From: Blasia pusilla
Taxonomy: Eukaryota
Assembly (NCBI GenBank): GCA_050084515.1
Contig: CM114271.1
Coordinates: 44,330,001 to 44,394,000, forward strand
Length of the DNA stretch: 64,000 nt
Direction of reading: 5' to 3'
In this document: in pieces, positions 2,124 to 58,800 of the stretch
How the letters are laid out: each line of letters starts with the position of its first letter
How positions within the stretch are numbered: position 1 is the stretch's first letter
Notes under the pieces: model-generated
Seen by the model: only the letters and a program-made list of their open reading frames with translations
The model's database searches: none
Told to the model about the DNA's origin: nothing
Translations under genes and position numbers: made by a program

Positions 2124-5100
2124 ATGGAATTCGTAAGCGAGGCAGGATCGGCAGTAGCGTTGATGGACACGGAAATAGGCGTTGGCCCGCGGGAGGAGGA
2201 TCAGCGAGGAGAGAAATCGGCAATTCCGCAGCATCACCCCGAGAAAATGCTGCAGAGCGGAGAGGTGGAATCGAACATTGAGACTTCGGAGGAAGCCAAG
2301 TCGGATGCGGAAAATGCTCAGAGAACAGTTTCGAGGTCTTTTAAGTTCTCTGCTTTTCCGTTAAGAGCAATGATTATTCTTGTCTCAAAACTTGCTGAAT
2401 TGATAACTCGGCTTTACTAACGTACAATTGAACCGTGCTTTGGCGTTAATTGTTCAGCTAGTTAAAGATCTCTGCCGGCTTCCGACGTGAACCAATTTCA
2501 GCCGAAAATAACTCTGCATTGGTGAGTTACTTGCAGGCTTCTACGATTGGCTTGCAAGTTTGATTCAACAGCTTCTTTAAGCTCTCTGTTGGAAAGGATG
2601 CCCGTGGATGCGTTGGACGATGAACATGACGGGCAGACAGTTCTGCACTACGCTGCAGAGGAACACTCAGTTCGATGCATCGAATTACTGTTGAAACGGC
2701 GTGCAAAGACTGATGTGAAGTCTAAGGAAGGCCTTGTTGCATTAGAAAGTGCTTTGCGAAGCGAGAGGTATACTCTTGTGACAGTTTCTCGTGAGACTCG
2801 AGTGACATCATCATGTATTAAAGCCTCGTGAGAACGTCCTGCACGTAGATTTAAGAATCTCTGCATCTGTAGATGCGAAATGGAAAGAATAGGCGTTCGA
2901 ACCTCAACAAGCCGAGACATTCTTCCCTTCCGTGGACCTCTGAGATAATACTGAAAAGTTCTTGATTAGCAGACTGCAGATACTAAGCTGGTCTCCTGCT
3001 GACAAAATCACTGAGCTGCTTACCTTAACCAGTGATAAGGTATCCGAAAAACGATCCTATCTTTGAGATCAAGTAAATTTCAATTTGATCTCCACCAAGA
3101 AACTCAAATTGCGCTATTTTTGTTGATTTTCTGTGCTCAAGCTTCATTGCATGAGAATGCAGTTAACTAGTATTCGTTACCCGTGTAATTGTCAGCATGC
3201 CTATAAGCATATAGATTTATGTTCCATCTGTCTAGTGATGACTAGAAACTAACCTTGATATTCAGTTTTGTGCAAACCTCAGTCCATTCTAAAGCTTTTT
3301 CCCACTGATTCTCAATAACCAGGACCTTACAGCGATACAGATCTTAGCTGGTCATACACCAGACGTGCTCGAGATTGCATCTCGATTGATTGTGCATGGC
3401 AACATAGTTGCCTTTGCAGCGCTTCTCGCTGTGACAGGGAACACACTAACCAGCATCCCTGTGCATAGTACCGAGGAGCATGGTGATGGTACACTCTTCG
3501 ATGTTATTGTGAAAAGAGCAATATCATTGGGAGAGGAAGTTCAAGACGGCGAACTGAAGAATGGCGGTTGCTCTGATTTGAAACATATGCTTCGCCAGAT
3601 GCTTTTGAGAGAGCTTGAGCTACTTCTTCGTTGGCACTTAGATAATGGTCAGATTAGTGATAGTAGACATCGTACTCCGCCGACTACGGCTGTCCCCTCC
3701 CCTTTATTACGCGCAGTGCAGGTCCCACAATTCCTCATCAACCTTAAAACATCCGTCTGAAATGCATCCATTGCGCTTTCTTTGGCGAATCTTTCCCTCT
3801 GTAGAGATCATTGAGCTTGGAGGAGGTGAACATGTCGCAAAGAATATTTCCTGATAGGGGTGAATTTCACGTAATAGGTATCAGGATAAGATCCCGAGAG
3901 GGTTTGTGGTTACAAATCTAATTATGGCTCACAACTTCAATGCGCGTTCTATGCAGGCTGGTGATGTAGCTGTGGCGAGTATAATGCTTGATTACAACGC
4001 AGGTGTAAACGATACTGACGGGGATGGTAACACTGCCTTGCACTGGTGTTTGCGGGCTATGTCCAACACCAGAGACATAAGGTCTAAGAGCTCATTTTGA
4101 AAGTCATGACGCCATCGTCAAAGATGTGGAATTATTCAATCTATATTGTTCCAATCTTTGCTGTTTCGTTGGCTATCAAAATTTTCAGAGAACAGTGGCT
4201 GACAAATAACTTTTATAATCAGGCTAGTTTCGAAGTTTGTCAGGAGTGGTGCATCCATAACAGCGGGCAATAGATTAGGATTAACGCCTGTTCACATAGC
4301 AGCCGGCCAAGGCCACCTACAGGCTTTACAGGTGCGTTGCTGATATTCACATTGTTGCTTCATCGAGTCTCCGCGTTTTACTGCTATTGTTGGGACCAGT
4401 ACTTTGTTACAGTATGTCATGATCTTCATTTTTGTAGATTCTACTGGCGGTGGAACCATCTTCGGTGCATGTACATGCAGAAACACGAGAAACTCCTCTC
4501 TTTTCTGCAGTGAAAGGGAATCATTACGATTGTGTCAGGCTCCTTCTCCAGCATGGAGCAAGTCGTCAAGTTTTGAACCTAAGGTTGATTCTTAAAGCTT
4601 TCAACTATGCGAACTTTGTAGTACGGTTTACCCATGCCGTCCGCTCTAAATGTTGTGTTGCAGTGTTCACGCCGGATCGCTGACTTATCTTCCAGAACTT
4701 ATGCATCCAGGGAGTCGTTAACGCTTGGAAAAAGTGTCGTCGACAGAAGTGTCCATGAAGAAAATTATAGATTACCGAATGCGTGTCGTGGTTAGGTCTG
4801 GGTTTAATACCCTACTGAAATGTCGCTGACCATGAGCTCTGGTTACTACAGAAAACAGAGGCCGATTGATGTAGCCGATACATCGGATATGAGAGCTCTC
4901 CTATCGCTCCAAGAATCATCAGGTGGAAATTGGCAAATGATATCTCGTCCGCATTCTCTCCTCAAGCGTAGACAAGCACGCCTCCGAGTATAGGCGTCCA
5001 AGAGCCAATGCAGGTTTTATTGGCAATTTTACCAACATAATTTGATACTAAGCTTTGAACTGTGCAACAGGGAAGGTGAAAAACTTGAGCCTAACCAGGT

Positions 5101-8100
5101 CCTCGGGCATGTTTAGCTCCGAAAGTGATGATGTTTCCTACGATATTGAGCATTTGAAGATTAAAAGTGGAAATTATCAGCCTCTTGATCCTACAGATGA
5201 AAGGTTTGCAACATCACGTTATCTGGATACTAAGTATCGATGCTTTTTTATAAATTGAAAAAGGGCAGGAATACCAAACAACTACCTAAATGATCTTGAA
5301 TCAATTTTAAACTTTAGCGTAAATGCCGAACTGTTCTTTCAGACTTGACAGTCATCATTTATCATCATGACACTCCGGAGCCCGTCAATTTCCCGTGTTC
5401 TTGTTGTTTGTTTGTATCTCTCTTTGGATTAGCCACATTACTGCAGATATTAAATTATTTCACAATAACTGTCTTGTTTGCCCTCCTGGTAGTCTGAAGT
5501 CGCTTGTACCAGCCAAGACAGAAATATGCCGCTACTTTGGAATGCCTGGAGGTTGTGTCCGTGGTGAGAAGTGCTTCTATGCCCATGGAGAAGAAGATAT
5601 CCATGGGAGACCAAGAATCACATCGGGGGATACAAAGCAGGGGCACGGCCTTTCCACCATTGTCGCAACTCCTGCTAGACTGGTGAAAGTTCGTTAAGCC
5701 ACTATGAGATTGCTCATGTTTGTGCATGCGGCTTGAGATCATTTTGGAAGCTATTTCGGAAATAACGCTACATATGATTGTTAATTGTGTGAGTGGTGTC
5801 AGACGTTTCGCTCCTGCAGACACCTGTTGGTCAGATGATAGTCGCCATTTGTCTTTGTGGGAGTAGAGTTCATTATAGACATTTTCTTAACGCGGCGTTG
5901 ATGCTTGAATTGTTGCATGACAGCGTGCCTCAGAAGATTTGAGCAGGAAAATATTTGTTGGAGGTCTCTCACCGTCAGTAGAATCTGGTAAGAGGTAGCT
6001 ACGATTCTAATGTATTCGCATGTTCGTTTCGCTCTCCTCAAAGGAAGGAGCCTTGTTGACAATGATATGCTTGATCTGCTAACAACTGAGCGATGACAGA
6101 TGACCTGCGGGAGTTTTTCGAAGACAACTTTGGTCCCGTAATGGATGCAATTGTCATAGGCAGTCACTCAGGTGATCAAGTCCAGTCTCGTGGTTTTGGG
6201 TTCGTGACCTTCAAGCATGAGGACTCGGTTATAGCTGCAGTTCAGGCGCATTACGTCAACATATTTGGAAAGAAGGTGAGAACGCCATACCGAATATGTG
6301 AAGTGTTTTGGAAAATCAGAGCCTATCCGGGTCTTCAAATCCTCTAAAATTGAATTAGTGTTACTCTTTTTCTGTTGCCATTCATGCTTTCTGTTGTTTT
6401 ACCTATACAGAAGTTTCTTAATACGTGGATCCCTCACTGACTTGGACCATCAAGGTAATTATTTTCTGTTTATCAAATGCTCACACGAATCGCTTCTTAT
6501 CTGTCCATCAGGTAGAGATTAAAGGCGCGGTTCCCCGCTCCGGCCTTTCTACACTTGAAAGTACCAAAGTAAGTTTTGGATTTTCAAGACTTTCCGGAGG
6601 GTCCTCTGAACTTCTTGAGGGTGCCACGTCTCAAATGATCGATCTCTCATCTCTTGAGCTTCTATGTCAAGCAAAAACTGATGTGCAAGCACAATGGATC
6701 CAGTTCATGGGATATCAAGGAGAAGGGGGCGCTTTACCATTTAAACTTTCGTTGAGTGAAGATCAGTTCGCTCCAAAATCTGCTCCTTCCTCAGCATCAT
6801 CAAGTTCACCGAGCACAAGCTCTTCAAGCGCAACTTGGGTCGTGAAGTTCAAACAATGGCTTCCTAAATTTTTGGCTGAAGTTTCCAACCGTCTAAAGGA
6901 AGGAGAATGGTATCCTTTGTCTTCCCTCAAAGGAGATTTTCGAGCGACTTGCGGGCTAGAGCTTGATCACGCAGGCATTGGCTATCACAAACTAAGTGAT
7001 TTTGTTCGCTCCCTGCCTGAGTTATGCAGAATGAAGATTGTACCTGTGGGTAGGGGACCTGCTACTCACATGGTGTTACTCCCGCCATTGGCACGATTGA
7101 CACCAGTTGCTACCACTCTGCAACATAAAGCAGCCAAAGCAAGCGGATCGATCGCAGACAGATCTTTGGTAGATGTCGGCCGCTCTTATGCCGCCGCAGC
7201 CTGTCACGGGTATGCAAACAGTTTGACCAGAAATCTGGAGACCTCTGGTTACCCCACCAGTCTGGTCTCTCAGCCTAGACTTCCTCGACAGCCACCGTCT
7301 CAGTTTGAGTACGGCGAATGCCCCAATCCAAGATACGCGGATGAAATTATTCTTCCAGATAACCTACTTCCCCTCGATCAAATAAATCCTAGTGACAGTA
7401 CCATTGGACATGCTTCCATTCTACCCAGCCAGTATTTGGCACCCAACTCACCCATGCAGGACGTTGACGCTACCTACTTAAAGGAGCTGATTGCTCTTTT
7501 GGATAATACGGAAGGACAGGAGATCGACAATCGACCGGTTCGCTATGATGACTATCCAAGAGAAAGCACAAACTCGTATAGCTCGAACATGACTCAGGCT
7601 ACCTCAGTGGATGACTCAGAGCCACATACGTACCAGGCGCGTAGCGGCACTTCACAGATGCCAATCGAAACGCAAGAAGAGCCGAAGACCCCAGTCAATC
7701 AAGTCAATCTGAAGCCGTTTTCAACCTTCAATCATCCATTTACTGGTTTTCTCCCACTTGAAAGCGGGTCATCTGTTTACAACATGTGGGGAGAAAATCG
7801 AACCAACAACCAGGCCACCATGGAGAGCAGCGTCCAGCAATCTCTCCAGGGGAAGAACTTACGCCAACCGTGGCTGTGGGATGTAAGTCTATGCAGTTAT
7901 GCATCTAAAACGTTTAAGCTTTTATTGTGCAACCAACCTTCAAATTGTTTCTCCGACTGGGTTTTTCGGTGTATGCAAGTTATTTGCGTTTTAGAATGAA
8001 TCCGATCTCCTCCGTCGGCTACATGCTATTTTGTTTTTCTGTGACGCTCAGCTGTCGTACATCCGATTTCAGTCCAAGGTTGACATTGGAATTCGTCCAC

Positions 8101-8417
8101 CTTCTTCTCGCTTTGTTGTTATGCAGGATTCACCACAGAGCATATTATATCCCTACGGACGTGGCTACCCGCAGTTAGCACCAGGGGAGAGACCCATGAC
8201 CTTATTCTCACCGGCAACGAGCAGTCCCGTGGAAGAACAATTTCTTGGAGCAGTTTGTGTGTTTTGTCGCGACCGAGCATCAATGTGGGTTGCGGTTCCA
8301 TGCAATCACTACTCAATGTGTGCTGTTTGCAAAGAAGCCTTACATAGGCTAAAACGCAGCACATCCACTTGTCCTGTATGTGAGTGTCCCGTGGAAAGGT
8401 GGATAGCTCTTCACTAG
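2124..8417 (+). CDS. Multidomain ankyrin repeat / CCCH zinc finger / RRM / LOTUS (OST-HTH) / RING-HC protein, ~1204 aa, 14 exons
   Basis: Phase-consistent GT-AG model: 2124-2335, 2537-2767, 2973-3039, 3323-3721, 3957-4081, 4223-4331, 4438-4583, 4852-4922, 5071-5233, 5493-5682 (alternative donor 5688), 5924-5987, 6100-6275, 6512-7882, 8127-8417 (3615 nt). Ankyrin motifs GQTVLHYAA, GNTALHW, GLTPVHIAA, ETPLFSAV. CCCH C-x8-C-x5-C-x3-H (KTEICRYFGMPGGCVRGEKCFYAH). RRM RNP2 KIFVGGL and RNP1 RGFGFVTF. LOTUS-like YPLSSLKGDFRATCGLELDHAGIGYHKLSDFVRSLP. C-terminal C-x2-C-x11-C-x-H-x3-C-x2-C-x13-C-x2-C RING. Confidence 0.9.
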
Positions 8418-9683
8418 AAGAGCACACATTCTCGTTCATTTCGTGTTTTCAACCAACTTCAGGCAACATTTCAATATCACGTAGATCAGTGACTGCAAGA
8501 ATATCAGCGTGCTTTAAATTGCATGTTTGTTGGTCAGCGTCACAGCTCCAGCTTTCACGTTGCGATGTTTCCTGGTGCGTTCCGCTCTGGCATAATCCGA
8601 CCTCTGGCGAGGCGTGGTGTCTTCGCGTAGGCGTTCGCCCTTGGAAGGACGGCGCTTATCAGAGATTGCTTCTTCATTTGTCACACTCCGTATGTCGCGG
8701 AAGACACGACTCAACGTAGAACCTACTCACAGGTTTTAGTAGTATTTCATCAGAGTTCGCACTCAGATGTACCGATGCTTTTAAATAAGTGCACCCGCAT
8801 ATTGTAGTATCTCGCTAAAGAATACAGATCTTAATTTCTACCAAGTATGATTTAGTTGTTTCGGCCACTTTTCTTAGATTGCGTTTTCTCAAATCGGGAT
8901 TTTAGCCACTGTACGCTATATTTCAAATATTTCCACCAAATGCATCTCTATCTCCGTGCTGTGTCCCTGAAATGCTCTGGGAATACAGGTTGGACTTGCA
9001 TCCATAAATTGGCATGACCATGTTTCCTATTGAACGTGCCTTTTGATGGGGCCTCAGCCGTTATTTTTGGGACAGCCGATTGCTTTCAAAGAATCACTCA
9101 ATCCACCTTAGTAACATCTTTTCTGGAAGTTGATGGTGGACGGTTGCCTCTATATTGATTCCGACGTGTATGAGAACACCGGTCTCACCATACTGCAGTT
9201 GGATTTAACGGATTTCAATACAAAATTGAGAATTCAACTACTTTTTCTCCAACCCACTACGCCAAAAGGTGGCTATTCTGTTCGTCCATCTTTCTCGATG
9301 GGCGCTCATTTTATTTGGTTTGAAGTCTATACAATGTTGGCCAGGGAAGAAATATGCCCCGGCTTGGCAAAAATACCATGCTTGCAAAGTTTTGTAAGCC
9401 TCTCCAGCAAATCTATATTCTAATTGGAGTTCTAATCGGAGGATGCAGGCTGCTCCTCTGTTTCACACGTGGCAGTAATATTTGTCAAAAATATTTTGGT
9501 GACTTAAGTGGAATTCATACGAAAAGAAATTGATACATAATAAATATTTAAATAGGGATCGGTGCAATACACGGGCCCTAACTAATACTACTAAATTTCT
9601 AGGATTTGCCTAATCTTTCGAAAGTTGAAAATGAGACTTCTCACACTCACATTCTTTAATAATCTCAATTAATTTCTTCATCA

Positions 9684-32300: not shown

Positions 32301-35300
32301 TATGGAGCGCCCGTTCTCTTTGTGAAGAAGAAGGATGATAAGATGAGACTCTGTATTGATTACCTTGCATTGAATAAAGTGGAGGTGAGGAACAACTAGC
32401 CTCTTTCAAGGATCGATGATCTCTTCAACAAACTATCAGAGGCAAAATACTTCACTAAGATTGATTTGAAGTCAGGATATTACCAGTTTTGGATTGCCAA
32501 AGCGGATGTGGAGAAGATTGCGTGTAGGACGAGATATGGCTCGTTTGAGTTTGTAGTGATGCTCTTCGGTCCATGTTATGCGCCTCCAACGTTCACCACA
32601 TTGATGAACTCCATTTTTCACGAGGAGATGAATGAGTATGTGATCATCTACATTGATGACATATTGATATTTCCAAAGTCACTAGAGGAGCAGACTCGGC
32701 ATCTGAGAGCGATGTTGTCAAAACTAAGGGCAAACAAGCTATATGTGAATGTGGAAAAGAGTGAGTTCGGCTTGCGCTATATCAAATTCTTGGTTCATAT
32801 GGTTAGCGCAAATGGAGTTAGTCTAGATATGGATAAGGTGAGAGCAATTGACGAATGGAAACTCCCTTATATAGTGAAGGGAATGAGGAGGTTCAATGGA
32901 GTGGTGCAATTTTAGCGGACTTACGTGAGGAACTTTTCGAGAATTGTGAGACCTCTCACTGATTGGACCGCAAAGTTTGCTAGCACAACCTAGACCCAAG
33001 AAATGAATGAGGCATTCAACCGAGTCAAGGAGATCCCGTCACATGAGCCACTGCTAAAGTTGTCGGAGTTTGAAAAACCGTTCAAGGTGCATGCTAATAC
33101 TTGTGATTTTGCAATTGTAGGAATGTTGGTGTATGAAGGAAGATCTGTAGCGTACGAGAGCAAGAAGCTTAGCAACATCGAATGCATGTGGCCCACTCAT
33201 GAGAAAGAGTTGTTTGTGGTGGTTCAGTGCTTGAAGAAGTGGCGTCACTATTTGGGACTCCACAAGACTCGAATATTCACCGATAATATATCACACCAGT
33301 ATTTTGAGACCAAGGATTGAGTGACACCGAAACAACTACGATGGCATGATACCTTGGCATTGATGAATATGGAACTACTCCACAAGCCTAAGAAGGATAA
33401 TGTCATTCCAAATGCATTGAGACGTAGGGATGAGCACATATCATCGACAACGTAAGTCTTGAGAGCAATGTTCCATAAGAAAACAGACCTGGAAAGAAGG
33501 ATTTGTGAAGGATACATGAAAAAAACCCAAGCAAGCGAGTTCCTAAGGAAGTTGAAGTAGGGTGAGAAGGTGGCTAACATAAGTTTGAGGCATGGTTAGC
33601 TAAGGTTTAAGTAGAGCAGGATCTATGTGGGCGAAGGCAAGCTGCGGACCAAGGTGTTAGAAAAATGTCATGACACACCCTTGGCAAGATATAAAGAGGA
33701 GAAATCCACGCTCGTTGTTTTGACTAAGAGGTTCTTCTGGCCCAACATGAAAGATGATGTTGCTCAATATGTGAAGACCTATGTGACATGCCAAGCGAAC
33801 ATGGTTTCATATGAAAAGAAACAAGGCTTGCTCCACCCTTTGCCGATTCCAAAAGGATCCTTTCAAAGTGTGAGTATGGACCTCATTATGAGTCTTTAGG
33901 GTTTTGAGGGATACAATGTTATACTTATGGTAGTTGATTGGTTCAGCAAGTTGGGGAGATTCATGACGACAGTGGTTTCCGCAATGGCCTATACGACTTC
34001 TCAACTGTACTTGGATAGTTGGTGGTAGGCTTATATGTTGCCCAAAAGTATTGTTTCAAATCGAGATCCAAAGTTTACTGGTGCATTTTGGAGGAAATTA
34101 TTTTGAAGGTTTAGGACCAAGTTGAGGTTTAGTTCCGCCTTCCATGCCCATACAGATGGACAGACGGAAAAGGAAAACTCGATAGTGAATGAGTATTTAA
34201 GGAATTTCATGAGTGCAGATTAGCGAGACTGGGCAAAGTGGCTAAGTATGGCAAAGTATTGCTACAACTCTACCAAGCATTCTGCAACTAGAGAACCTTT
34301 GTTTCTTTTGGATTATGGACGTGAGCCAGAAGAGCCTCTTGACATGGCCCCTTTGAAGGGCACTACGTCGACACAAACCCGACAAGCAACGACAAAAGGT
34401 TTGTTGATGGAGATGCGAGAACAAGAGGAGCAAGCAAGAGGAAGTCTTGCCAAGGCTCAACTAAGGTATGTTAAACATACTAACAAAAGCCGGTGCCAAA
34501 TGAGATTCCAAGTAGGGGAGCAAGTGTGGTTGAGTGTGAAGAATCTCACTCTTCCGAAGGAGTTTTCCGCGAAGCTATCTGCCAAGTATGTTGGACCGTA
34601 TGTGATAAGGCAAACCCATTTGAGGATGTATATACATTGGAGCTGCAAGAAGAGTTCAAGATTCATACAAATTTCCATATGTTATAATTGAAGAAGTGTC
34701 TTCAAGATAATGTGCGTCCCGAGCAGGGACAAATGTTGAGACCACAACCGGTAATTGTTAATGAAGAATCGGAGTTTGAGGTGGAGACCATGGTGCGTTT
34801 GAGGCACAGGGCCAACAAGTACGAGTACTTGGTCATTTGGAAGGGCTCCTATGTGAAAGAGTCGACTTGGATTGCGGAGGCATATCTGGAACACACACAA
34901 GAGATGTTTGAAGACTTCAAACAGATGTAGGAAAATTCCGCACTTCCTCTTGCTTGGTCTTGTCTTCCTCTTGCTTGCCCTTGGCTTCCTCTTTCTTGCT
35001 CTTGTCATATCTCTAGCCTCCCCATGTACTAACGCATGTACATGGGTTGGCTTTCCAAAAATACTTGAAATTAGAAGGTTTGCATTGATGAGGGCATAAA
35101 TCCCTAAAGAGGAGTGAGTTTTGCAACCCTTATAACCAAACAAATACCAAGGGGAACATCGAAACTCTAGCGAGCTCACACTAGGATGGTTTGGGCATTG
35201 GAGGGGTCTCTTGGAAGAGACGTAAGAGACATGAGAGAGAACTCGCAAAAAAGGTTGAGAATTTCATGCGTTTATGGTTGTGATTAGGAAACTTAGACCA

Positions 35301-55849: not shown

Positions 55850-58800
55850 AAATCGTAGAAGTTATGTTCTCCTACAATTAAGAAAATGCAATGTTGTGGA
55901 TATTGTGGAATTATACTCTACAGCAATCCACGTTCTCATATGGCAGTTGTGTACTCACCTGAACCACCCCCATATGTATTATGCAATAGTTTTCTCAGAG
56001 ACTTTGTAATTCCCATAGTGGATCATTTCCATGCAGATATGCATTGCTAATAGACCCATAATAGAATTCAATGTATACCTAACTCCTGCATATATTTGAA
56101 GTATATCGTTTGTCAATCCTATGGAATTACAACTTCTTTCAATTGTAGACTCAAGAATATGTATTGAAAATAAATTCAACAATTTTCATAAGGGATTTTT
56201 TTCCATGACCTTGTTAGACTCCCCGATTGTTGGATTTAATTTTAAATCTAGCATGATAGGGGTTTAGTCTCCACTAGATCCAACTATCAAACAATTGTTC
56301 ATGGTTAATTTCCAGATCAATGACCTATATAAAGATTACAAAGTTCTTCTAGAGTTACCACATCCAACATTCGGGCTCGTTGTGTTACCACCTTCCTACG
56401 TGCAGAGTATAATCAGATAATCACAAATTAAAGATCACGTTACTCATAGCATGGCCTATGATCCATACCATCTAGAGTTAAATATATTACAAGATATTTT
56501 ATATGAGTTTTGCCTTTTCATTTTGGACAAGGAGCTAGAAAAATTGAAAAAAAGAGAAACCTAACCTTCGCGAGGAAGAATTATATCGACATCTTTCAAA
56601 GTATTCCCTCAGTCCACAACTACCCGGTAGTCCTTCTTGGCATAGAAGACATCTTAAAGACGTGAAGGCCATGGTACACAAGTGGGGCATGCCCCACTTT
56701 TTCCTTACCCTCACATCAAATGAGATGTCATCTATACATTGGCATGAGATTGATGATATAGAAGATCTGCTTTCCAGGTTCAAAAACTCTTTCACCTGGA
56801 GAGATGCCCCTTCAAAATGTGCACAACTATTTCACACAAGACTATACTCCTTTTTGTCACTATTCATATTTTTTGGTCCACGCTTACTTGGGAAATTTTT
56901 TGATTATTTGTTGAGGTATGAATTGCAAAATAGGGGTAGTCTCCATTGTCACATGATACTTTGGATAGAAAAGATGGATATTGATCGTGTTACATTAGAG
57001 ATATGCACGTACATACCATCCACCACGCCAGTAACCACCCATCAATTGAACATACCACTTGATGCATCTATTACATTAAGAGAGTATGTTTTAACTAAAA
57101 AACTCCACAAATGTAAGGATGGTGTTTGTATTGTTCACAGAAAAAACCAGAAACCATATTGTCGTTTAGGATTTCCAACATCTCCTAATTTGCAAACTAC
57201 ACCTTTCATTGATCCAAAATCGAAAAGATAGAACTACTTCTGACCATCATTAGATCATAGAAATGTAATACCGTATCATTCACTTATCCTTCTATGGGGC
57301 ACACATATGAACATTCAACCAATCACCAACAAAAATTGGTCATTTTATTTGCTCAAATATGCACTCAAGTCCAAACCCACAGGCTCACTTGATATAGATA
57401 CAAAAACAACAGTATGCTTAGGGCTTCAGGGATTGGATGAGATAAAATTGAAGCTCATTTCTGGTATAGTTTTGAACAAATCAGTATCTTCCATAGAGGC
57501 AGCTTTAATTTCAATGCAGATACCTATTATTTATAGGTCTCAAGTAGTACATTATATAGATAGTAATCCCCCAACTAGAAGGAACTCACTCTACAGAAAT
57601 GCTTTAGTGCCTTGCATACATCCAACAAAATTGTACTGTAATAGACCAACTTGCCTAGATGGACTAACTTTCATAGATTATTAGACAAGTTATGAATTAT
57701 TCAAAGAGTAGGAAAAAAAAAACAAGCCGTAGGACTCGATAATCTGGGAAATGTTGTATGTAAGACCATACGAATTGTTAAATTCACATAATTTCATCCA
57801 TTCCATAAATGGAATGCTTTTTTATACTTAGTTTTATTGGCTCATGTGCCATTCCGTGTTGAATCCTCACTTATATCTTCTGCTTCACACATATGGACTT
57901 ATCTTCATAAATGTGTTCAACGAACGATTATCACTTCTTTCGATGATGTTCGTGAATTGATTAGAACATATGCACTTAAGAACCTTTGGAGTAATGTCCA
58001 TATGGCAGAAATAGTTTCCAAAGCAAGTAACAATCTTGAACCTAAATTTCACTTGGATATTAATGAGATGCTTACACAGCATCAAGATGATATTCCTTCA
58101 AGTGTTGTTTCAGATGCCACTCACATAGATGATTTTCAGGAATGTCCTTTAAATGAAGAACAACAGCTTCTCTTTGAAGCTCTATCGAACCATGATTCTA
58201 GTCTTGTCATTTTGAGAAGGCCGCGTGGTTGTGGGAAGACATTTTTTCATTACTTATATGTACAAGTTCTGGCAGAGAAATGGCATATTTCCTCTCTTGA
58301 CAACCACTACTAGAATAGCAGCTGTTAGACTTCATTTAGAGGCTGCAATTGTTCACTCTTCATTTGCAATACCTATACGCGGAGATCTTTCCTCTATGCA
58401 TATTACTTCTGATACATATCTACGTCTTAGGAATGCACAGGTAATTGTTGTGGATGAATGTTCTATGTTGACACCTAAACTACTCCAGATTATAGCAATG
58501 AGGTTAAATGAGGCATGTCCAGAAAATTCTCATCGACCATTTGCTGGGAAATTAGTACTATTAGTTGCTGACTTTTGTCAGCTCCCTCCTATATGTACCC
58601 ATAAAATTGTAGACTTCAATCGATGTTGTCACTTGTCTACATCAAAATTCATGCAGAACGAAACTATTTATGGGCTATCCACTCCAGTAAGTCACAATTC
58701 TGATCCAGAATACTTGTTGTTTTTTTAACTCTTTTAGGATTTGTGAACCATCACAAATCCAGATTGACCAATGCATAGGTCACTGTTTTGAGTCTGAAAA

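Follow-up and report, generated by a model that had tools for sequence, protein, structure and literature searches.

Does a liverwort gene that joins ankyrin repeats, a CCCH zinc finger, an RRM, a LOTUS domain and a RING in one chain encode a new kind of ubiquitin ligase, or does it belong to a family whose role is already known? The question is raised by a gene at positions 2124-8417 (+ strand) of a 64,000-nucleotide stretch of the Blasia pusilla genome (assembly GCA_050084515.1, contig CM114271.1, positions 44,330,001 to 44,394,000 of the forward strand), hereafter the window, whose numbering is used unless stated otherwise. A preliminary description, made from the sequence alone, had read the gene as a candidate RNA-dependent E3 ubiquitin ligase. 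We find instead that it is almost certainly a member of the MEL2-like (MEL2L/PAM1) family. It is the only intact member found in this genome, it keeps the five ancestral modules, and its product probably serves as a scaffold of messenger ribonucleoprotein (mRNP) particles in the sporophyte before meiosis; we give this combined reading a probability of about 0.85. Structure, family membership and lineage were computed here, while the functional steps draw on grass proteins (of rice and maize) and on expression data for bryophyte relatives.

Domain architecture and family membership

The deduced protein carries, in this order, ankyrin repeats (ANK), the finger, the RRM, the LOTUS domain, a long linker and a terminal C3HC4 RING. 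This anatomy, as given in the preliminary description, is borne out by a Pfam profile search of ten exon-level frames and by the visible spacing of the metal ligands. Ankyrin families matched in four of the ten frames (best E 1.5e-8), and exons 1 and 4 had no Pfam match in this exon-level scan. The finger has the exact C-x8-C-x5-C-x3-H spacing at 5527-5586, with a profile match (zf-CCCH_4, E 8.5e-5) that lies below the curated cut-off; in the family alignment it is kept from Closterium and Chara to the non-grass angiosperms and has decayed in grasses. Both RNP2 and RNP1 are intact in the RRM (RRM_1, E 6e-9), and OST-HTH matches the LOTUS domain at 6848-7045 (E 3e-11). All eight zinc ligands of the RING are present at 8256-8381, spaced C-x2-C-x11-C-x-H-x3-C-x2-C-x13-C-x2-C (zf-C3HC4_3, E 8e-10).

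The LOTUS assignment, also part of the preliminary description, stood up to structure prediction. An AlphaFold2 model of the region shows helices and a wing of two strands, as in the winged-helix fold, at a predicted local distance difference test score (pLDDT) above 90 for 81 residues. The ten best rows of a Foldseek search with this model were all solved LOTUS structures (TDRD7, Tejas, TDRD5 and Oskar; best E 3.5e-3, none below 1e-3). Two other plant LOTUS domains bind G-rich or G-quadruplex (G4) RNA, and the Vasa-binding eLOTUS subtype, found in animals only, is marked by a C-terminal helix past the wing (PMC7498356). In the monomer model no helix of four or more residues follows the second strand, where the chain is rich in Pro and modelled with low confidence; a helix induced by binding is possible. 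Since no confident helix follows the wing in the predicted model, a Vasa-type mechanism is unlikely, and we set it aside.

Between LOTUS and RING lies a spacer of 302 residues rich in S, P, T and Q (11%, 10%, 7% and 7%, respectively), with a pLDDT of about 50 over its first 40 residues. It contains conserved short motifs at about 7165-7205, 7680-7790 and 8127-8150. R-[ST]-Y-A follows the LOTUS domain in 13 of 34 aligned rows, with two copies in Sphagnum fallax; EP-x-TP occurs in 7/34 rows, all bryophyte, and F-[NS]-H-[PS]-F in 4/34; SP-[QHN]-S stands just upstream of the RING in eight of the 34 rows at that position. These motifs could be sites of binding or of proline-directed phosphorylation.

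The published consensus of MEL2-like proteins, ANK-ZINC(C3H1)-RRM-LOTUS-RING, has the same five modules arranged in this order, with a long spacer ahead of the RING (bioRxiv 10.1101/2021.03.24.433842). The preliminary description had stated that no characterised protein has the full architecture; that claim falls, as the consensus was already in this preprint and both MEL2 of rice and PAM1 of maize have been characterised as regulators of meiosis. These two are characterised counterparts in substance, though both lack the finger. The liverwort protein shows the consensus order in the Pfam search and the homolog alignment, and it has the consecutive RRM-LOTUS core of MEL2L, with RRM_1 and OST-HTH matches and, respectively, 60% and 68% identity to MEL2.

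In BLASTP, the spliced model aligned with rice MEL2 (Os12g0572800, UniRef F1LJ10) at 39% identity over residues 66-836 (E 2e-139), and with an unnamed, uncharacterised protein of the liverwort Calypogeia fissa (CAM6093021.1, 1307 aa) at 55% identity, collinear and unbroken over residues 23-1194. The Calypogeia protein has the five modules and the same final residues. Rice MEL2 shares the module order, with 48-50% identity in the ankyrin blocks and 64% between the LOTUS regions in tblastn. It differs in its decayed finger, in the tandem Pro-rich repeats of its spacer and in its C-terminus, where 82 residues, with a second Cys-rich finger among them, follow a first RING only 26% identical to that of the liverwort. 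Maize PAM1 (Zm00001d030741) likewise has two ankyrin blocks, RRM, LOTUS and RING, but carries two RINGs, lacks the finger and acts on the chromosome axis in splicing; in our comparisons it is equated with a 1095-aa maize protein on account of its species, its length and the positions of its domains, not by accession.

A search with exon 13 returned 33 long homologs, and one with the LOTUS region alone 69 shorter and 69 longer ones. They range over Closterium, Chara, bryophytes, lycophytes, ferns, a conifer and angiosperms, and one Oryza cluster holds the record named MEL2 (F1LJ10, 1160 aa). The proteins of Calypogeia, Diphasiastrum and Closterium each matched five modules in Pfam; rice MEL2 and the 1095-aa protein of maize matched four, the finger being absent. 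When the profiles were derived from family members instead, the 70 long homologs (database gene models, isoforms included) comprised 25 with all five modules, 21 missing only the finger, seven missing only the RING and 17 with other combinations. The complete form occurs in Closterium, two liverworts, a lycophyte, ferns and a conifer.

Two trees were built, the first from 568 conserved columns and 34 rows with one outgroup row, the second from 276 ANK-free columns and 24 rows after 10 of the 34 (long branches and redundant angiosperms) were dropped. In the first, the window protein is sister to Calypogeia (94/81) within a liverwort group that includes three Marchantia proteins (93/98), rice MEL2 and the 1095-aa protein of maize fall within the monocots, and the supported family groups track plant lineages. 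The rows nearest to the window protein are Calypogeia at 0.3, Diphasiastrum at 0.53 and Marchantia at 0.58, and a LOTUS-less paralog sits on a branch of 1.43. The liverwort group recurs in the second tree (95/98), where the window protein adjoins Marchantia (90/89), and both trees thus mark the source plant as a liverwort. On this evidence the protein groups with MEL2L, apart from the LOTUS-less ANK-ZINC-RRM group, in trees whose deep nodes are weak.

The preprint reports the full form from five eudicot families only, and for Marchantia, Physcomitrium and Selaginella only forms that lack either ANK or RING; the window gene, from a liverwort, has the full form. With the family-built profiles, ANK was not found in any named moss or Marchantia protein checked, all of them annotated gene models, on which its absence there rests. 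A single clade of the seven ANK-less moss and Marchantia rows, a group picked after the first tree had been seen, was rejected in the approximately unbiased test (p-AU 0.006). The Closterium protein has the complete set of five modules, and the full form is therefore most simply read as ancestral; ANK appears to have been lost separately in mosses and in Marchantia.

Gene model and related copies in the genome

The predicted gene has 14 exons with GT-AG borders at all introns, and one open frame runs from the ATG at 2124 to the TAG at 8417 (Table 1), in keeping with the single phase-consistent frame first described. In a model of 1194 codons plus stop, introns measure 106-289 nucleotides (nt). 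Every frame-keeping donor/acceptor pair within ±45 nt (8-28 per intron) was scored against two full-length homologs, and the initial choice of junction scored highest for 11 of the 13 introns. At intron 9, donor 5233 exceeded donor 5203 by just 8 points, which makes this the weakest junction of the predicted model; at intron 10, donor 5688 exceeded donor 5682 by 32 points. The protein accordingly spans 1194-1206 aa: donor 5233 alone gives the 1204 aa of the preliminary description, a valid variant, and donors 5233 and 5688 together give 1206 aa. One sequencing run, RNA by guess only (share 0.08), placed four short contigs on 7142-7870 and 8538-8710, covered none of the splice joints and is uninformative on expression and splicing. 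The contig at 8538-8710 begins 120 bases beyond the stop codon and could be 3' untranslated region, if the run is indeed RNA.

Table 1. Exons of the predicted MEL2-like gene, and remnants of mobile elements, in the window
Feature	Position	Strand	Content	Evidence
Exon 1	2124..2335	+	Start codon (first ATG in frame), acidic N-terminal leader	Calypogeia P0169 starts alike (ME-x-V)
Exon 2	2537..2767	+	First ankyrin block	Ank_2 E 1.5e-8; best among 14 and 28 junction alternatives (two sides)
Exon 3	2973..3039	+	Family-conserved segment past first ankyrin block	Gap-free alignment to Calypogeia P0168; splice test
Exon 4	3323..3721	+	Region between ankyrin blocks, start of second block	No Pfam match; aligns to Calypogeia P0168
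Exon 5	3957..4081	+	Ankyrin repeat	Ank_4 E 3e-4; rice MEL2 tblastn match
Exon 6	4223..4331	+	Ankyrin repeat (TPVH)	Ank_4 E 3e-4; homolog alignment
Exon 7	4438..4583	+	Ankyrin repeat	Ank E 1.7e-6; rice MEL2 match 52%
Exon 8	4852..4922	+	End of ankyrin block	Gap-free alignment to Calypogeia P0168; splice test
Exon 9	5071..5233	+	Variable linker; donor 5233 or 5203	
Exon 10	5493..5688	+	C3H1 zinc finger (5527-5586)	zf-CCCH_4 E 8.5e-5; ligand spacing
Exon 11	5924..5987	+	RRM, RNP2 motif IFVGGL	Alignment
Exon 12	6100..6275	+	RRM, RNP1 motif RGFGFVTF	RRM_1 E 6e-9; alignment
Exon 13	6512..7882	+	RRM end, linker, LOTUS (~6821-7081), most of S/P/T/Q-rich spacer	OST-HTH E 3e-11; predicted model and fold search
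Exon 14	8127..8417	+	Terminal C3HC4 RING (8256-8381), 11-residue tail, stop	zf-C3HC4_3 E 8e-10; MEX3C RING 5zi6 match
LTR (long terminal repeat) retrotransposon	32400..34690	+	Broken frames; reverse transcriptase, Tf2-like SH3 domain	RVT_1 E 7e-21
Helitron	56548..58728	+	Broken; separate frames	Helitron_like_N E 4e-22; PIF1 helicase E 3e-14

We infer that exons 1-14 are read as a single transcript. Alternatively, a break at intron 8 or 9 might divide the locus into two adjacent units, or leave a truncated isoform dominant, with one protein of ANK alone and another, without ANK, that runs from finger to RING like those seen in mosses and Marchantia. A second Calypogeia copy is in fact annotated as two neighbouring proteins, one of 528 aa with ANK only and one of 676 aa with the rest (P0169 and P0034), broken at the position of intron 9. 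Together with the ambiguous donor of that intron and the ANK-less moss and Marchantia proteins, this lends the split some weight. Against it, exons 8, 9 and 10 are in phase with canonical splice sites, the other Calypogeia copy (in a cluster of more than 90% identity) is a single 1307-aa chain collinear across the region, the five modules are joined in 25 of the 70 long homologs, and rice MEL2 joins ANK to RRM. We regard a split gene as very improbable; the divided Calypogeia copy may be a mistake of annotation or a true fission like that in other bryophytes.

Searches of the genome gave match counts that are lower bounds, and the window gene is called the only intact copy in the sense that no other was found. 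The LOTUS query gave at least three matches from seven candidates (the window gene, a fragment and a double-LOTUS gene), the RRM query at least two from nine (the window gene and one other), and rice MEL2 as query 18 listed matches from 40 scored candidates, among which ANK, RRM and LOTUS came together only in the window gene.

The second RRM match (C7, at about 11575812-11580221; L009:2313-6722, + strand) is an intronless frame of 1470 codons that encodes ankyrin blocks, a pair of CCCH fingers and an RRM, and in which no LOTUS or RING match was found. It fits the LOTUS-less ANK-ZINC-RRM sister group (e.g. Mapoly0003s0158), which has ANK, finger and RRM in common with the window protein and was left out of MEL2L by the preprint. 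As its relative has 14 exons, the absence of introns here hints at an old retrocopy. The LOTUS fragment (C3, at about 23055636-23056277, - strand) was rejected as a second functional paralog: it corresponds to part of exon 13 only, carries a stop and frame shifts, is 57% identical over its best segment in the LOTUS region, and no ANK, RRM, RING or other exon was matched within 19 kb of it. The double-LOTUS gene (C8; L006:2930-4925, - strand) was likewise rejected as a MEL2L; its frame, at least 1080 codons long, has two distant LOTUS-like segments (30-35% identity), and it may be MARF1/Limkain-like.

The terminal RING and ubiquitin ligation

In a search of PDB sequences, the best match to the window RING was that of MEX3C (5zi6; E 4.5e-4 over 53 residues, full length), followed by a herpesvirus RING and then by IAP, MGRN1 and MDM2 RINGs (E 0.01-0.05 overall, 0.03-0.05 for the last three). 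MEX3C and the IAP, MDM2 and MGRN1 ligases share with the window protein the type of RING and its position at the extreme C-terminus, and MEX3C also binds RNA; the likeness is confined to the RING, and MEX3 binds RNA via KH domains. Dimeric RINGs at the end of a chain require a tail of set length. The tail past the last Cys has 11 residues in nine of 11 displayed non-angiosperm rows (10 in Closterium, one row unmatched), and in the six displayed angiosperm rows 82-134 residues follow the first RING.

Canonical RING E3s usually have Arg as the linchpin, the residue after the last Cys, although this is not universal among active ligases. Here it is Glu, and Arg occurs in only two of 99 RING matches (from 198 proteins, redundant and grass-rich). 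The Pro after Cys7 is present in the window RING and in only four of the 99. The missing Arg is not decisive, because MEX3C itself has Gln at this position in the PDB alignment. The chances that the RING is a catalytically active E3 seem to us evenly balanced.

Could ligation then be the main job of the protein, compatible with its place in the family? The RNA-binding modules would bring a dimeric RING of the MEX3/IAP/MDM2 type to mRNPs, where the target might be the protein itself or ankyrin-bound partners, for example in clearing a granule at meiotic entry. The match to an RNA-binding E3 and the near-constant tail speak for this, as does the loss of rice MEL2-GFP (green fluorescent protein) by meiotic prophase I (bioRxiv 10.1101/2021.03.24.433842). 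A ubiquitin-related role in ribonucleoprotein (RNP) assembly was also predicted in 2010 for plant LOTUS domains fused to ankyrin and RING (PMC2848206), and the coupling of RNA to ubiquitination advanced in the preliminary description is to that extent not a new idea.

Other evidence points away from it. Besides the atypical linchpin and the rarity of Pro after Cys7, RING-less members exist (the seven of 70 long homologs with ANK-finger-RRM-LOTUS), and RING-deleted MEL2 still makes granules (bioRxiv 10.1101/2021.03.24.433842). The functions shown for the family are RNA granules, CCR4-NOT and meiosis rather than ubiquitination; the word 'ubiquitin' has no occurrence in the main text of that preprint or of the PAM1 paper (PMC13187813), and a third report calls the RING an E3 domain by annotation (PMC10838886). 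A literature search by title and start of abstract, which most subscription papers lie outside, found no ligase assay for a MEL2L RING, and nothing in the sequence or this literature points to RNA-dependence. Ligation as the main job is possible but, in our judgement, less likely than not. Of the preliminary interpretation, the anatomy stands and ligase activity is possible; the uncharacterised architecture drops out, and the RNA-dependence is unsupported.

A proposed role in sporophyte mRNPs

We return to a MEL2-like scaffold. In pre-meiotic cells, the poly(A)+ granules made by rice MEL2-GFP coincide with markers of stress granules and P-bodies; on its own, the MEL2 RING gave granules in 16 of 51 protoplasts, and with the spacer deleted the granules were larger (bioRxiv 10.1101/2021.03.24.433842). 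Maize PAM1, a MEL2 homolog, binds ASY1 via ANK and CCR4-NOT via its C-terminal part, and controls the splicing of meiotic transcripts (PMC13187813). An ankyrin point mutation causes female sterility (PMC10838886). Position 369 of the MEL2 record is Ala, so its numbering differs from that used for the rice h569 allele (His369Arg), and we make no claim from that allele.

By analogy with these proteins, the liverwort gene would be turned on in the sporophyte around the time at which spore mother cells enter meiosis. Its RRM, C3H1 finger and LOTUS domain would bind mRNAs, and the protein would condense into cytoplasmic RNP granules, promoted by LOTUS and RING and limited by the long spacer. The LOTUS/C-terminal part may recruit CCR4-NOT, and the ankyrin blocks would dock partner proteins, as with ASY1 in maize. 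Meiotic transcripts would in this way be stored, released, decayed or spliced on schedule, with the RING acting as an assembly module at least and possibly as an E3. On such analogies we consider a meiotic or sporophytic mRNP role in B. pusilla likely.

Several points weigh against this reading. The proposed function comes from grass proteins, in which the finger is missing and the C-terminus is different (82 residues past the first RING). The grass data themselves conflict, with cytoplasmic granules and meiotic entry in rice and the chromosome axis, splicing and no entry defect in maize; the PAM1 deletion, moreover, removed LOTUS and RING together, so that CCR4-NOT binding is not cleanly a property of LOTUS (PMC13187813). 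The deep nodes of both trees are weakly supported, and the top single exon-level score with the MEL2 query went to the LOTUS-less C7 paralog (117.3 against 117.0 bits), helped by its intronless frame. Finally, Arabidopsis At3g28880 is ubiquitously expressed (bioRxiv 10.1101/2021.03.24.433842).

That last observation would suit a general, non-meiotic mRNP or stress-granule scaffold, of which the meiotic role is a grass specialisation. The colocalisation of MEL2 with a stress-granule marker would fit as well, as would the preprint's report that no MEL2L was detected in Fabaceae or Solanaceae. The same preprint, however, describes five Marchantia genes and one Physcomitrium gene with sporophyte-only expression, and an Arabidopsis protein that has lost the RRM and the finger. 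A general scaffold is, in our judgement, unlikely, and a sporophytic, pre-meiotic one is preferred.

A bolder extension takes the five-module protein with a single MEX3C-like RING and a fixed 11-residue tail as the ancestral land-plant state. Its RING would be an active E3, independent of the linchpin, with the protein itself or its partners in the granule as substrates. ANK would then have been lost independently in mosses and Marchantia, and the finger in grasses. Taken as a whole this is doubtful. If true, the protein would be a self-timing brake on meiotic mRNAs and a candidate device for delaying meiosis until the sporophyte has grown.

The architecture and the meiotic role of the family are already published and the discovery value is small; a full-form bryophyte protein, the unnamed one of Calypogeia, is already in GenBank, and further ones may be published. 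The additions made here are modest: a bryophyte with the complete form, evidence for separate losses of ANK, and attention to whether the RING is a ligase. For that question, the single terminal RING with a fixed tail, the non-seed version, is the simplest substrate. A liverwort with one complete copy is also a cleaner subject than Marchantia with its several truncated paralogs, and it corrects a view, gained from model bryophytes, in which the MEL2-like proteins of early-diverging land plants are all truncated.

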